From Chthoniobacteraceae bacterium (GTDB taxonomy: Bacteria > Verrucomicrobiota > Verrucomicrobiia > Chthoniobacterales > Chthoniobacteraceae): a stretch of 55,994 bases of DNA. Each line of letters opens with the position of its first letter. The first letter of the stretch is position 1. Under the pieces are notes generated by a model. It searched no databases. It saw only the letters and a program-made list of their open reading frames with translations, and was not told the DNA's origin. This document shows positions 33,818 to 38,177 of this stretch, piece after piece. The DNA lies in the NCBI GenBank assembly GCA_031409655.1, contig JANNXQ010000090.1, forward strand, positions 1-55,994, given 5' to 3'. Made by a program: the position numbers and the translations under genes.

Positions 33818-34092
33818 GGGTGCGTTTTTTCCGAGCTTTTCAAAAGCCGGCAGCCACCCGCCACTCAATTCGCGGATGGACTTCCGGCTTCGCGCGATCC
33901 TCCTCGGTTTGCCGATCCGCGCTCCTGCTTTCCCAAAGCGCCCCCAGCCCTCCCCGGCAGACCTTCAGGCAAGGACCAACGAACTGCTCCGAGTGGTATT
34001 AAGATAAGACATCGGATGGATGAATGGACCATGCTCCAGCGTGCGCCGGAGACTGGGCACTCCGCACCGGCACGTGGCTCGACTGATCAAAC

Positions 34093-34237
34093 CTGTCATT
34101 CCGAGCGGAGTCGAGGAACCTAACGCTCATGCGGGCAGCGGCGGTGCGGAGCCTTTCGCGCGGTCAAGCTCCGCGCCGCCGCTGCCCGCGGAGATCGGAG
34201 GTTCCTCGACTCCGCTCCGCTCCGCTCGGAATGACAG
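34093..34237. mobile_element. Long palindromic MITE/REP-like element
   Basis: Terminal inverted repeats ctgtcattccgagcggagtcgaggaacct / aggttcctcgactccgct(ccgctccgct)cggaatgacag enclose an inner stem gcgggcagcggcgg / ccgccgctgcccgc. Confidence 0.75.
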
Positions 34238-34596
34238 CACCTTTCCCGACGCTCCCCTTTGCCCCATGCGCACTCACCATCTGCGGGCTTATCTTGATGC
34301 CATTCGGAACTGCTCCCAAAGGTGCAACTCACCTTTCCGTGAGCCCGGCCTTTCCCGACTGCCTCGCTCCCGCACCGGCGCCCCGCGCCGCGTCTCCACG
34401 CCGGCGGCAAGGTCCGGCATCTCCGCGTGCGTCGGCGGATCGCTGGAGGTGCCGGTGTGGGGCTCCAGCCCGTGCGGATGCGGCGCCGTCCCCGCGCTTG
34501 TTTCCACGGGTTGCGCAGCCGACACGTCTTCTGTTGACGCTGGCGGCGGCAGCCGGGGTTTGCCTTCCGCAGGTGAGACGCATAGAAGCGACGGAC

Positions 34597-37578
34597 ATGG
34601 CTGGCCGTAAGCAGACTTCCACCGCACCCTCGGGGCGCTCTCCCGCGCCAGCCACGGAGGCGGACGTGCGGGTGCGGGTGCTGAAAGGGCACAAGGCCAG
34701 TGTCTTGCGCGTGGCGATGCCGGAGGACGGGCGCTTCGCGCTCACGAGCAGCGGCGATGGCACGGTGCGCCGATGGGCGCTGGCGGAGGACGGGACGGAG
34801 GGGGAGATCGTGTGCGGGGGGAAGGCGTTTGTGGGCCTCGCGGTGACGGCGGATGGCAGCCGCGCGGCGGCGGGGGATGCGGAAGGAACCATCCGCGTCA
34901 TCGATCTCTCCACCGCTCGTGTGCTACGCGAGTGGAAAGGCCATCGCGAGCGGGTGGGCAATGTGGCCTTTCATGCCGGTGGCCGAGAGTTGCTGAGCGC
35001 AGCGGAGGACGGCTATCTCCGCCGCTGGAATGCGGACACCGGTGACAACAGCGCGCAGTGCAGGGTGCCGGAGGGAATGCTCTACGGTGTCGCGGCATCG
35101 GTGGATGGCAGCCGGATCGTCGGTGCGGCTTTGCATGAAGGGCTGGCTCTCTGGTCCGGGCGCGAAGGCGCGAAGCCGGTCATTTTCAAAGAGAGTGTCG
35201 CCATGCAGTCCCCCGTGAGCCTGCCCGCCGATGGCCGCTTCGCCTTTACCGGCACTGGCGATGGCAAGGTGGCGAAATGGGACCTCACCGAGGGCCGCCG
35301 CGTCGCGGCCTTCGAAGGGCACAGCGGCCAGGTGCATACCGTGGCGGTGACGCCCGATGGGCGCTTCTGCGTCTCGGGTGGCGCCGACAAGACCGTGCGC
35401 CTCTGGGCGGCGGAGACCGGCGAGTGCCTCGCCGTTTTGCGCGGTCACGCGGGCTTTGTGTATGGAATCGCCATCACCCCCGATGCCCGCCGCATCGCCT
35501 CGGTCGGTAGCGACAAAACCCTCCGCGTCTGGGACATCCCCGCGCCGATCCTGGCCCGTGCGGCCATTTCTCGGAAGCGCGGGTATGTGAATGCTAAGGT
35601 GGTGCTGCTGGGCGAGTCGAGGGTTGGTAAGACTGGCATCGCCAACCGGATCTGGCACGACACCTGGAAAGTCACCGACAGCACGCACGGAATGGAAGTT
35701 CGGCGCGTGCCGCTCAGCGGGACGAGTGAACATCCCGAGATTGAACGGGAGATGTGGCTTTGGGATCTTGCCGGTCAGCCCGAATATCGTCTCACCCATC
35801 AACTCTTCATGGAGCAGACCGCGCTTGCCGTGGTCGTTGTGGACCGGCAGCGTGATGATCTTTTTTCCTCCGGCAAGTATTGGCAGCAAGCGCTGGGCAA
35901 AGTGGCAAACACGGCAGACAGGCCGTATATCCTCGTGGCGGGGAGATGTGACGAGCCCGGGCAACGCTGCACCGTCGAGGAAATGAAAGCGTGGGCTGTG
36001 CAAAATGGATTTCACGGCCCCATCCTCACTGCCGCGAAGGACGGCAAACACCCTGGCGTGGCGGAACTGCGCGCGCTCATCGAGGAGCTGCTGCCGTGGG
36101 ACAAGCTGGAATTCCGCAGCACGCAGGAAAACTTCCCCGCCCTGAAGGACGCCGCCCTCGCCGTGCGCGAGGCGCAAGACCCCGGCGGCGTGGTGGTGAA
36201 GCCCGCCGAACTCGAAGCCCGCGTGCGCCAGGTCGCACCGCACCTCACTTTCACCCCGGAAGATCTCCGCGCCGTGACGGGTCTGCTCGCCGGCGAAGGC
36301 GTGCTTCACGCGCTACCCTACGGCGACCTCGTGGTGCTCCAGCCGAGCTGGGTGAATTGCTACGCATCCACGCTCGTGAAGCTGGCCGGTGAAGCCGCCA
36401 ACAAACTCGGCCACGTCGCGCTGGCGACCATCCAGCCGGGCAAACTTCCCATCGACGGTACGCCACGGCTGAGCGGGGAAGACGAAGCGCAACTCTTGCC
36501 CGCACTGGTGGCGCTCTTTCTGGAACGGGCGCTCGCCTGGAAGCAGGAGACGGACAAAGGGACGATGCTCGTCTTCCCGAACTACGTGCGCCTGCCCCGC
36601 CCGACGCCGCCGCCGCGTCCCGGACGGACGGTGGTGTATCGCTTCACCGGCCCGCTGGAGGAGATCTACTGCACGCTGGTGGTGCGCCTGCACTACAGCG
36701 GGCTCTTTTGCGAAACGAAGCTCTACCGGCAGGCCGCGGACTTCCGCACCATCACGGACAAACTTGCCGCGCTGACCCTGCGGGAAAGCGGCGAGCGCGG
36801 GGAGCTGGACGTGTATTTCGGCGACAAGCTCGACGCGGATGTGCAAGCGGCCTTCCAGCAATTCGTCCACGAGCACCTCACCGCCAAGGCGACGGACGTG
36901 GAGCGGCTGCGGAATTATTTTTGCCCGAAACCGAAGTGCGGGAAAGAGGCGCTGGATCGCGCCGCCATCGACGCCGCGCGGGCCAAGACGAAGACCGGCG
37001 CGAAGATTTTCTGCGCTCAGTGTGGAGGGGCCATCCTGCTCGATGACGTGCTGGAGCAGCAATTCATCAGCAAGGAAGGCGGCGAAAAAGCAGATGAAGC
37101 TGGGCGCACGGCGGGCGAGAAACAGAACACCGCGTCCATGGAGCAAGTGATGGTCGGCGAAGTGATGGCGCTCGTCGGTGAGGCCGATCAAATCTACCGC
37201 ATCCAAGCCGAGCCCGACGAAGGCGTGGACGGCGAGATCGAGTTCCGCGACACCAAGAAGAAGGCGACCGGCATCACCTTCCGCGTGCAACTCAAGTCCG
37301 GCGACTCGCATCTGAAGCCGCGCCAGGACGGCAGCGAGGTCTTCGCGATGAAGAAGCACTACGAGGGCTATTGGGCGGGAAAAGGGAAGGTGCCGGTGCT
37401 GCTCATCATCCGCACCAGCGATGGGCGCCTTCGCTTCATGAACGCCACCGCCGCCATCCGCGCCGCGCAGAAAAAATCGCCCGGCAAATCCGTGAAACAA
37501 CTCGTCTTCACCGGCGAGGATTTCACCAGGGAAGCGGTGCTCCGGCTTCGGGACGAACGCCTGCCGCGGGCAAAGTAG
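34597..37578 (+). CDS. WD40 repeat - Roc GTPase - COR-like - Zn ribbon - DUF4365-like PD-(D/E)xK nuclease protein
   Basis: About 7 GH...W[DA] WD40 repeats. KVVLLGESRVGKT (G1), STHG (G2), WDLAGQPEY (G3). CPKPKC...CAQC. PDEGVDGEIEF...VQLKSG. Confidence 0.88.
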   Translation: MAGRKQTSTAPSGRSPAPATEADVRVRVLKGHKASVLRVAMPEDGRFALTSSGDGTVRRWALAEDGTEGEIVCGGKAFVGLAVTADGSRAAAGDAEGTIRVIDLSTARVLREWKGHRERVGNVAFHAGGRELLSAAEDGYLRRWNADTGDNSAQCRVPEGMLYGVAASVDGSRIVGAALHEGLALWSGREGAKPVIFKESVAMQSPVSLPADGRFAFTGTGDGKVAKWDLTEGRRVAAFEGHSGQVHTVAVTPDGRFCVSGGADKTVRLWAAETGECLAVLRGHAGFVYGIAITPDARRIASVGSDKTLRVWDIPAPILARAAISRKRGYVNAKVVLLGESRVGKTGIANRIWHDTWKVTDSTHGMEVRRVPLSGTSEHPEIEREMWLWDLAGQPEYRLTHQLFMEQTALAVVVVDRQRDDLFSSGKYWQQALGKVANTADRPYILVAGRCDEPGQRCTVEEMKAWAVQNGFHGPILTAAKDGKHPGVAELRALIEELLPWDKLEFRSTQENFPALKDAALAVREAQDPGGVVVKPAELEARVRQVAPHLTFTPEDLRAVTGLLAGEGVLHALPYGDLVVLQPSWVNCYASTLVKLAGEAANKLGHVALATIQPGKLPIDGTPRLSGEDEAQLLPALVALFLERALAWKQETDKGTMLVFPNYVRLPRPTPPPRPGRTVVYRFTGPLEEIYCTLVVRLHYSGLFCETKLYRQAADFRTITDKLAALTLRESGERGELDVYFGDKLDADVQAAFQQFVHEHLTAKATDVERLRNYFCPKPKCGKEALDRAAIDAARAKTKTGAKIFCAQCGGAILLDDVLEQQFISKEGGEKADEAGRTAGEKQNTASMEQVMVGEVMALVGEADQIYRIQAEPDEGVDGEIEFRDTKKKATGITFRVQLKSGDSHLKPRQDGSEVFAMKKHYEGYWAGKGKVPVLLIIRTSDGRLRFMNATAAIRAAQKKSPGKSVKQLVFTGEDFTREAVLRLRDERLPRAK

Positions 37579-37606
37579 CGTCACGGAAAGAAGGATTCAG
37601 GGCGGT

Positions 37607-37690
37607 GGAGGCGGGAGTGGCGCTACTGGAGGCAGGAGTGCCTCTACTGGCGGAGGGAGTGGCGCTACTGGGGGCGGGAGCGACGTCACG
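37607..37690. repeat. Degenerate 21-bp tandem repeat (about 4 copies)
   Basis: ggaggcgggagtggcgctact / ggaggcaggagtgcctctact / ggcggagggagtggcgctact / gggggcgggagcgacgtcacg. Confidence 0.75.
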
Positions 37691-37804
37691 GGCGGCCGGA
37701 GGAAAATCCCGCGAAGGAGGAGCCAGTCATCGGCTTCCCCGGGCCTGGGTATCGGAGATGGGAGCCGGGTTCCGGAGCTCGTCCGCCGTCTGGGCGGGGA
37801 GGGC

Positions 37805-38177
37805 TCAGCGGCGCTTCTCGATCTCGCTCTGGAGGAGGGCGCCGGGGCAGTTCGACTCCGCGACTTCGCGGTGGGTGTAGAGCGCGGTGCGGGGCAGGCG
37901 ATGCTTTGCGCGCGCATAGGCGAGGAGGCGATCCAGGGCCTGCAGGGCGGCGGGAGTGGGCGGCGTCGATCTCGGCCTGGGTGTGCGGTAAGGGCTGCCG
38001 CTGCTCGCTGGCGGCGGCATTGGCCTGGGCCTTTTCCGCGCGGATGTCGTCGCGGAGTTCCGCGCGCTTTTCCTCCAGGGTGCGAAATTCCCCGAGCAGG
38101 GAGATGCACAAGTGGCCGTCGCGACCGGTGGCGGGAGGGTCAGTCCGTGCATAAGTGCAGAAAGGGAGAAGCAGCAC
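37805..38177 (-). pseudogene. Frameshifted, 5'-truncated N-acetylmuramoyl-L-alanine amidase (Amidase_2)-like remnant
   Basis: HLCISLLGEF lies in one frame; PTPAALQALDRLL...YTHREVAESNCPG lies in another, with the switch near 37965. No N-terminal IxxHH motif was found. Confidence 0.55.

Follow-up and report, generated by a model that had tools for sequence, protein, structure and literature searches.

The protein encoded at positions 34597-37578 (+) of a 55,994-nucleotide stretch (the window) of contig JANNXQ010000090.1 from a Chthoniobacteraceae bacterium is probably a single-gene abortive-infection receptor built on a Roco GTPase. One open reading frame of 993 residues carries, in this order, a WD40 propeller, a Roc GTPase, a COR domain, a zinc ribbon and a DUF4365 nuclease, and lacks an N-terminal TIR domain. 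The motifs of switch and nuclease are intact, one face of the propeller is highly variable among homologs, effectors are swapped behind a common core, the gene spreads alone and patchily, and its Roc and nuclease alleles have recombined. Beyond this domain anatomy, we infer a protein that would rest as a GTP-bound monomer and that, upon ligand binding, would form a COR-driven oligomer in which a non-specific nuclease is switched on.

Domain architecture

The start at 34597 agrees with the N-termini of the 17 close homologs displayed. A longer reading frame from the in-frame position 34129 was rejected, as its extension resembles neither of the two homolog extensions with which it was compared. 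In the AlphaFold2 (AF2) model of the full protein, based on a 92-row alignment (mean pLDDT 91, pTM 0.85), the seven propeller blades are followed by a Ras-like domain, a middle region in two parts and a small ribbon; a helix of 34 residues then leads to an alpha/beta domain at the C-terminus (Table 1). Where a first-pass annotation had read about seven WD40 repeats from the letters alone, Pfam finds WD40 repeats and the AF2 model has seven blades, each four-stranded.

Roc is recognised by PF08477 (E 3e-19, above the cut-off, aa 334-452) and holds all four GTPase motifs quoted by that annotation. The 60 matches listed from a PDB sequence search, Rab- and Roco-type GTPases among them, all lie in the Roc region. 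Motif retention was counted in an alignment of 120 rows (the query and 119 homologs), in which misses are mostly truncated rows: Lys345 is kept in 113, Asp390 in 117 and Gln394 in 118. The G4 motif GRCD had been singled out as atypical, which it is, but not as a peculiarity of this copy, since Arg450 occurs in 119/120 and Asp452 in 120/120 rows. In these rows, xRxD is the G4 signature of the family, with the guanine-specifying Asp kept, and the same counts led us to reject a degenerating GTPase. Gln418 (118/120 rows) aligns, via a paralog alignment, with the Arg of the D-S-R motif of Chlorobium tepidum Roco (CtRoco), which is residue 543 by our own count and which we take to be the arginine called essential in the Roco review (PMC6337361).

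A Pfam search of the protein gave no hit for COR. Modelled separately, residues 501-993 have the COR domain of CtRoco as their best match (Foldseek E 1e-10), followed by LRRK1/2, and superpose on CtRoco COR with a VIA Z of 16.3 (root mean square deviation 4.1, 291 aligned residues, 9% identity), so that the region described earlier as COR-like does fold as COR. The C-terminal part matches best the DREN nuclease of SPARDA (9qcc, 9qbp, 9jsz; Foldseek E 6e-7) and also matches Hjc (Z 9.9). Both fold matches identify the protein as a genuine Roco whose tail has the restriction-endonuclease fold; it holds the G1-G5 motifs in Roc and a COR domain directly after it. The four cysteines of the ribbon, located correctly in the first pass, are each present in 115-117/120 rows and presumably bind zinc.

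The nuclease-like C-terminus is recovered by Pfam as DUF4365 (E 6e-13). Across the alignment, Asp878 is kept in 113 rows, Gln898 in 108 and Lys900 in 111. The restriction-endonuclease fold, the Asp and the Q-x-K motif place the domain in the DUF4365/DREN family, and in a characterised DUF4365 enzyme the active site is formed by this Q/K pair (PMC10810196).

Table 1 Features of the gene and its flanks, with positions in the window.
Feature	Position	Strand	Basis
Whole gene	34597..37578	+	ORF, Pfam, AF2; start fits homolog N-termini
Seven-blade WD40 beta-propeller, aa 25-313	34669..35535	+	Pfam, AF2 strands, Foldseek 5yzv E 1.5e-24
Roc GTPase, aa 329-500	35581..36096	+	P-loop Lys345, G3 Asp390/Gln394, G4 Arg450/Asp452, Gln418
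Roc 'R-allele' block, aa 342-472	35620..36012	+	21 diagnostic residues; AU test; lower GC3
COR domain (COR-A + COR-B), aa 501-772	36097..36912	+	Fold match 3dpu/3dpt/6hlu and LRRK1/2; sequence highly diverged
Four-Cys zinc ribbon, Cys776/781/806/809	36922..37023	+	In span aligned to C-terminal part of CtRoco COR
Long helix, aa 829-862, ribbon-to-nuclease linker	37081..37182	+	AF2; carries conserved Glu849
DUF4365/DREN-like PD-(D/E)xK nuclease	37168..37551	+	Asp878, Gln898, Lys900 intact
Broken N-acetylmuramoyl-L-alanine amidase remnant	37790..38140	-	Amidase_2 E 1e-5 on 37808-37990; downstream, between gene and PhzF
REP-like nested inverted repeat	34093..34237	.	Upstream of gene; 18 blastn matches in own genome

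Proposed mechanism

The model of a GTP-bound monomer that is off and an oligomer that is on combines two sets of published data. By itself, DREN is an inactive monomer that tetramerisation switches on (PMC12205087), and CtRoco is described in PMC5714945 and PMC11052575 as dimeric in the empty or GDP-bound state and monomeric on GTP. Because GTP dissociates the CtRoco dimer, it may be the GDP-bound or empty state, rather than GTP, that turns the nuclease on. Thus, of the GTPase-gated immune or cell-death module proposed in the first pass, the architecture and the computational checks hold, while activation by GTP is called into question by the CtRoco dimer data.

In the cycle that we propose, the resting protein would be a GTP-loaded monomer, its DUF4365 domain as inactive as DREN is in isolation. 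Binding of an invader protein to the top face of the propeller would then move Roc to the GDP-bound or empty state. COR could then drive the formation of a dimer or higher assembly, in which the long helix would bring the nuclease domains together, and the joined nucleases would degrade DNA or RNA non-specifically and thereby arrest the infected cell. A predicted complex of two COR-ribbon-nuclease copies (score 0.01, mark 0.42) was used neither for nor against this model.

Variation of the propeller

The WD40 propeller, the likely sensor, shows the lowest conservation of all domains (mean identity 0.58 versus 0.78 for COR in the 58 full-length of 80 close homologs). In comparisons with seven close genes, dN/dS is below 1 in all five domains and is highest in WD40 against 5/7. 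Top-face positions were assigned by the register rule for WD40 blades. The 21 sites obtained have a mean entropy of 3.04 bits versus 1.25 at the 268 other propeller sites, a height that 0/100,000 permutations reached. The register of blades 2-5 was fixed after the entropies were known, whereas blades 1, 6 and 7 are unambiguous, and all nine of their top-face sites lie at 2.8-3.7 bits. At the top-face sites, pN/pS is 1.07, versus 0.38 elsewhere in the propeller.

Such hypervariability of one face fits a changing foreign ligand better than a fixed metabolite. This bears on a second reading of the same immune role, in which the trigger would be a fall in cellular GTP or a damaged, guarded host protein, with Roc as a GTP gauge and WD40 as modulator or guard. 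According to PMC6337361, Roco activity may be set directly by physiological GTP levels, and the empty state is a dimer; both would suit a gauge, as would the few relatives in which TIR directly precedes Roc and WD40 is absent (3/148 representatives, a set skewed to close relatives). On balance, we consider this trigger unlikely.

Recombination of Roc and nuclease alleles

The Roc allele of the query is a minority form, with Arg342/Arg417/Glu453 in 15 rows versus Gly/Pro/Arg in 85. Within the close clade, 21 residues split the 15 proteins with a P-loop Arg from the 66 with a P-loop Gly, and all of them fall in aa 342-472, none in other domains. Over codons 301-500, the G+C content at third codon positions (GC3) is 0.68-0.78, compared with 0.80-0.83 in six neighbouring genes. 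The R-allele forms one clade in the Roc tree. Its monophyly on the COR alignment is rejected by the approximately unbiased (AU) test (p-AU 2e-5; 30 of 58 rows, LG+G4), and that of two nuclease alleles is likewise rejected (p-AU 1.6e-4 and 8e-6); the groups put to the test had been defined on the Roc and nuclease trees, in the same run that also made a quick COR tree. All six combinations of Roc with nuclease allele occur. In bins of protein identity to the query, the homolog L038 reaches 0.52-0.74 in Roc and 0.94-0.98 in the helix and nuclease start, and L040 and L041 show the opposite pattern. Taken together, Roc and nuclease alleles have been shuffled against the COR tree by recombination, and the GTPase domain itself has been exchanged as a cassette. 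A single Logan contig from run X2, which may be the source sample itself, covers the gene with 0 differences, which makes assembly chimerism an unlikely cause of the mosaic in this gene.

Provided that the GBP1 loop stands in the register relative to Arg342 that we presume, Arg342 could hypothetically serve as a cis arginine finger. In GBP1, the arginine at the third P-loop position is such a finger, as described in parts of PMC5084822, and here the arginine is third after the P-loop Gly. This would suit a conventional polarity, in which the ligand promotes GTP loading and the GTP-bound or transition state assembles the nuclease, as in dimerising GTPases of the GBP1 type; the missing Arg543 equivalent points the same way. 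Yet the P-loop arginine is found in 15/120 rows only, and the fold is Roc-COR, for which the only bacterial Roco data, in the available part of PMC5714945, point in the opposite direction. We judge this polarity improbable, and it would be a variant of the best explanation rather than another biological role.

The abortive-infection reading can also be stated in a bolder form, which we regard as possible although doubtful. The protein would be gated by a switch of the LRRK2 type with inverted polarity, safe as a GTP monomer and lethal as a GDP-bound or empty oligomer, and would integrate a phage ligand on WD40 with the GTP level. A GBP-like P-loop Arg cassette of Roc and a Gly cassette would be freely combined by recombination with three or more nuclease alleles and many sensor faces, which would imply that phages target the GTPase too.

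Effector exchange and distribution

A search with the COR-ribbon region yielded 1,258 clusters at 50% identity. In GTDB, confirmation succeeded for 566/597 pattern matches and 73 loci were retained, with relatives in Verrucomicrobiota, Planctomycetota, Acidobacteriota, Cyanobacteria, Proteobacteria, Armatimonadota and archaea. If the gene were a defence module, the first-pass annotation had reasoned, homologs should be patchily distributed, exchange their effectors and be enriched near defence genes. The distribution is indeed patchy: 23/150 genomes of the same family have any match (E 1e-20), and in a single one of these genomes it is close and full-length; 0/3 congeners (97, 96 and 74% complete) match; and none of 400 sampled genomes of the phylum reaches E 1e-40, where the matches listed had no more than two candidates scored for each genome. 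Ten pattern matches on viral contigs included no confirmed relative, and plasmids gave three distant cyanobacterial matches (~30% identity, none with 80% coverage). Neither PADLOC nor NCBIfam matched the protein to a system over its full length, and PADLOC matched at the domain level only.

Effectors are exchanged as well. Among the 148 representatives, the first C-terminal domain after COR and ribbon is a nuclease in 104, TIR in 15, another domain in 6 (CHAT and nucleotide cyclase included) and absent or truncated in 23, so that nuclease, TIR, CHAT and cyclase occur in the same slot. TIR accounts for 18/20 of the N-terminal extensions and 7/7 of the non-nuclease tails tested. Most of the distant members have an N-terminal TIR; the query clade does not, which leaves the nuclease as its sole effector. 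Two to five tandem nuclease domains occur in the relatives P0257, P0097, P0135, P0141, P0159 and P0169, an arrangement that would pre-assemble nuclease oligomers within one chain. Additional fusions to ABC-type (AAA_21) or STAND-like ATPases were seen in P0150, P0162, P0167, P0100 and P0153, and free AAA_21 genes adjoin L040, L095 and L103.

Some relatives bear cyclase, histidine-kinase-type or receiver domains. These domains, and the usual position of the gene alone among housekeeping genes, would agree with a role in signalling or stress response, in which the C-terminal domain would bind nucleic acid or serve a programmed death that has nothing to do with invaders. Housekeeping signalling would not typically show an intact nuclease motif, exchange of the nuclease for TIR or CHAT, a gene missing from congeners, many broken copies and shuffled alleles, and we find such a role quite unlikely.

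The same genome encodes two further Roco proteins. One (G000:C241, L001) has a leucine-rich-repeat (LRR)-Roc architecture with a helical, non-TIR tail. The other (G000:C215, L002) is LRR-Roc-COR with a tail that looks TIR-like by eye; this protein matches Methanosarcina barkeri Roco2 (E 2e-56). Three broken family remnants lie on contigs C130, C22 and C299. The first (G000:C130:12239-12946) is a COR-B/zinc-ribbon piece that carries another ribbon allele (77% to P0019) and leads into an unrelated TPR-like tail; the others (G000:C22:8062-8551 and G000:C299:32566-34070) are nuclease and COR-B pieces of more distant members, and broken copies like these are common in genomes of the same family (L009-L024).

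Gene neighbourhood

At 61 of the 73 loci, with 12 short contigs left out, 217 nearest genes were scanned, and no conserved partner gene was found among them. DNA similarity to 14 close loci ends at the gene boundaries, without shared flanks. Thus, the homologs do not sit in a uniformly conserved core synteny; they are patchy and have no fixed partner. No Argonaute family is among the Pfam hits shown for the neighbours in the window or for the 217 homolog neighbours.

Solo mobility without common flanking DNA, together with discrete alleles, would also be compatible with a selfish addiction or kin-discrimination element, i.e., a toxin held back by its own sensor or by an allele-matched partner, comparable to fungal incompatibility of the HET type. 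The 217 neighbours contain no antitoxin or conserved partner and the model has no secretion or membrane feature; such an element seems very improbable to us.

By our count, a gene of toxin-antitoxin (TA) or defence type lies within two genes at 17/61 loci (HipA, HicAB, DUF433/DUF5615, HEPN, TIR, AAA_21, CHAT, PD-(D/E)xK, STAND-like or a second Roco), and five more loci have a transposase or integrase only. In the window's genome, none of 34 control sets, each of four genes, has such a gene, or two have one if counted generously (Fisher p 0.0004-0.014). This excess agrees with the expected enrichment and gives modest support to an abortive-infection receptor.

Several points weigh against that reading. 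The neighbour control is drawn from a single genome, and which families to count was settled after the hits were known; 44/61 loci lie among ordinary genes with no TA or defence-type gene within two genes, and the locus itself is among ordinary genes and not in a defence island. Choosing the register of blades 2-5 post hoc weakens the top-face statistic, and a saturated pN/pS of about 1 is concentrated variation and no proof of positive selection. Because Gln418 replaces the equivalent of Arg543, the nucleotide cycle of CtRoco may not carry over. The literature searched, which covered few subscription papers, contained no tested member of the WD40-Roco-nuclease family, and 0/12 gasdermin-protease systems restricted coliphages in the available part of bioRxiv 2021.06.07.447441.

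Individual loci are worth recording. In Magnetospirillum fulvum (L082), a TIR-WD40-Roco-nuclease gene lies within a type IV secretion/conjugation cluster (VirB8, CagX, TraG-like), and a Planctomycetaceae genome (L097:2311-10016) has two convergent family members with a sulfatase gene between them. Two loci labelled 'uncultured Klebsiella sp.' (L043, L066) have genes and neighbours of verrucomicrobial or planctomycetal appearance; the label is probably wrong.

Flanking DNA

The gene had been described as isolated and opposite to both neighbours. Its orientation stands, with qor upstream and PhzF downstream both on the minus strand, and the isolation needs correction for a broken amidase remnant before PhzF, which has a 76%-identical copy on contig C66. 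The REP-like repeat upstream is a multi-copy element, probably unrelated to the function of the gene; IS200-like Y1 transposases stand after two homologs (L062 and L064). Five degenerate 21-bp tandem repeats follow the stop codon (37585-37710), and a search upstream of the gene found no sigma-70-like promoter. An empty site was looked for in congeners and not demonstrated: in G096, qor, amidase and PhzF are on separate contigs, and the neighbour upstream of qor reads as another gene. One contig of run X4 links 33921 to 37805 via 40 other letters (short side 62 letters, 85% setting), a weak hint of a gene-free site.

Comparison with known systems

The class to which this protein would belong has been predicted before. 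Kaur et al. (2021; PMC8195603) proposed LRR-AP-GTPase-COR proteins with at least 24 effectors as counter-invader systems, and their supplement, among proteins that lack LRR, holds 41 beta-propeller occurrences, in orders such as TIR+BetaPropeller+AP-GTPase and BetaPropeller+AP-GTPase+TIR or +Calcineurin, with two of the proteins titled DUF4365-containing. Since a GTPase in place of STAND is thus already in print, the idea is not new, which tempers its appeal; it recurs in the available parts of Kaur 2020 and of a 2026 preprint. Our protein shares with these systems the repeat sensor, Roc, COR and variable C-terminal effector, as well as the several paralogs per genome, here two LRR-Roc proteins besides. 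The text of PMC8195603 describes LRR sensors, whereas the rapidly evolving repeats seen here are WD40, and COR and nuclease are unannotated in the first 30 of the 41 beta-propeller rows. That work is a prediction only, and the parts consulted contain neither a TIR-less form nor allele shuffling. Elsewhere, prokaryotic Rocos are defined by LRR (PMC4316618, in part), a 2019 review treats all of them as LRR-Roc-COR of unknown function in its available part (PMC6337361), and a 2026 TIR preprint, as far as accessible, has Roc and COR only in a legend.

An experimental precedent for a bacterial Roc-COR fused to a death effector is the Runella Roc-COR-CHAT protease, which cleaves gasdermin and kills E. 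coli (bioRxiv 2021.06.07.447441, available part); unlike the nuclease, it acts on the product of a partner gene.

With CtRoco, M. barkeri Roco2 and LRRK1/2, the protein shares the Roc-COR tandem, the best fold match of its middle region. It differs by WD40 instead of LRR in front, the four-Cys ribbon, a COR identity of 9-13%, xRxD instead of NKxD at G4, Gln for Arg543 and a nuclease rather than kinase output. A 993-residue, single-effector Roco with a cheap DNA-degradation read-out would make it possible to test directly which nucleotide state of Roc-COR activates an effector, which bears on LRRK2, and the two natural Roc alleles provide a built-in comparison of catalytic mechanisms.

SPARDA (DUF4365-APAZ with a short Argonaute) has the same nuclease family and Q-x-K active site. 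Here, APAZ is absent from the protein, Argonaute and guide are lacking and the scaffold is a GTPase, so that the protein is no SPARDA member; activation by tetramers or filaments is a feature of SPARDA/DREN. Avs and other bacterial NLR-like STAND proteins join sensor, switch and effector in one chain, with a restriction-endonuclease-fold effector and an AAA+ STAND ATPase as switch. The protein follows the same logic but is no STAND member, as it switches by a Ras-like GTPase and runs in the opposite order, from an N-terminal sensor to a C-terminal effector. If our reading is true, it would add a GTPase-gated class to the STAND-dominated bacterial pattern receptors. What is new in comparison with these systems is the compact, TIR-less form with a single effector, the fold-level detection of a COR domain hidden from Pfam and the mosaicism of domain cassettes.

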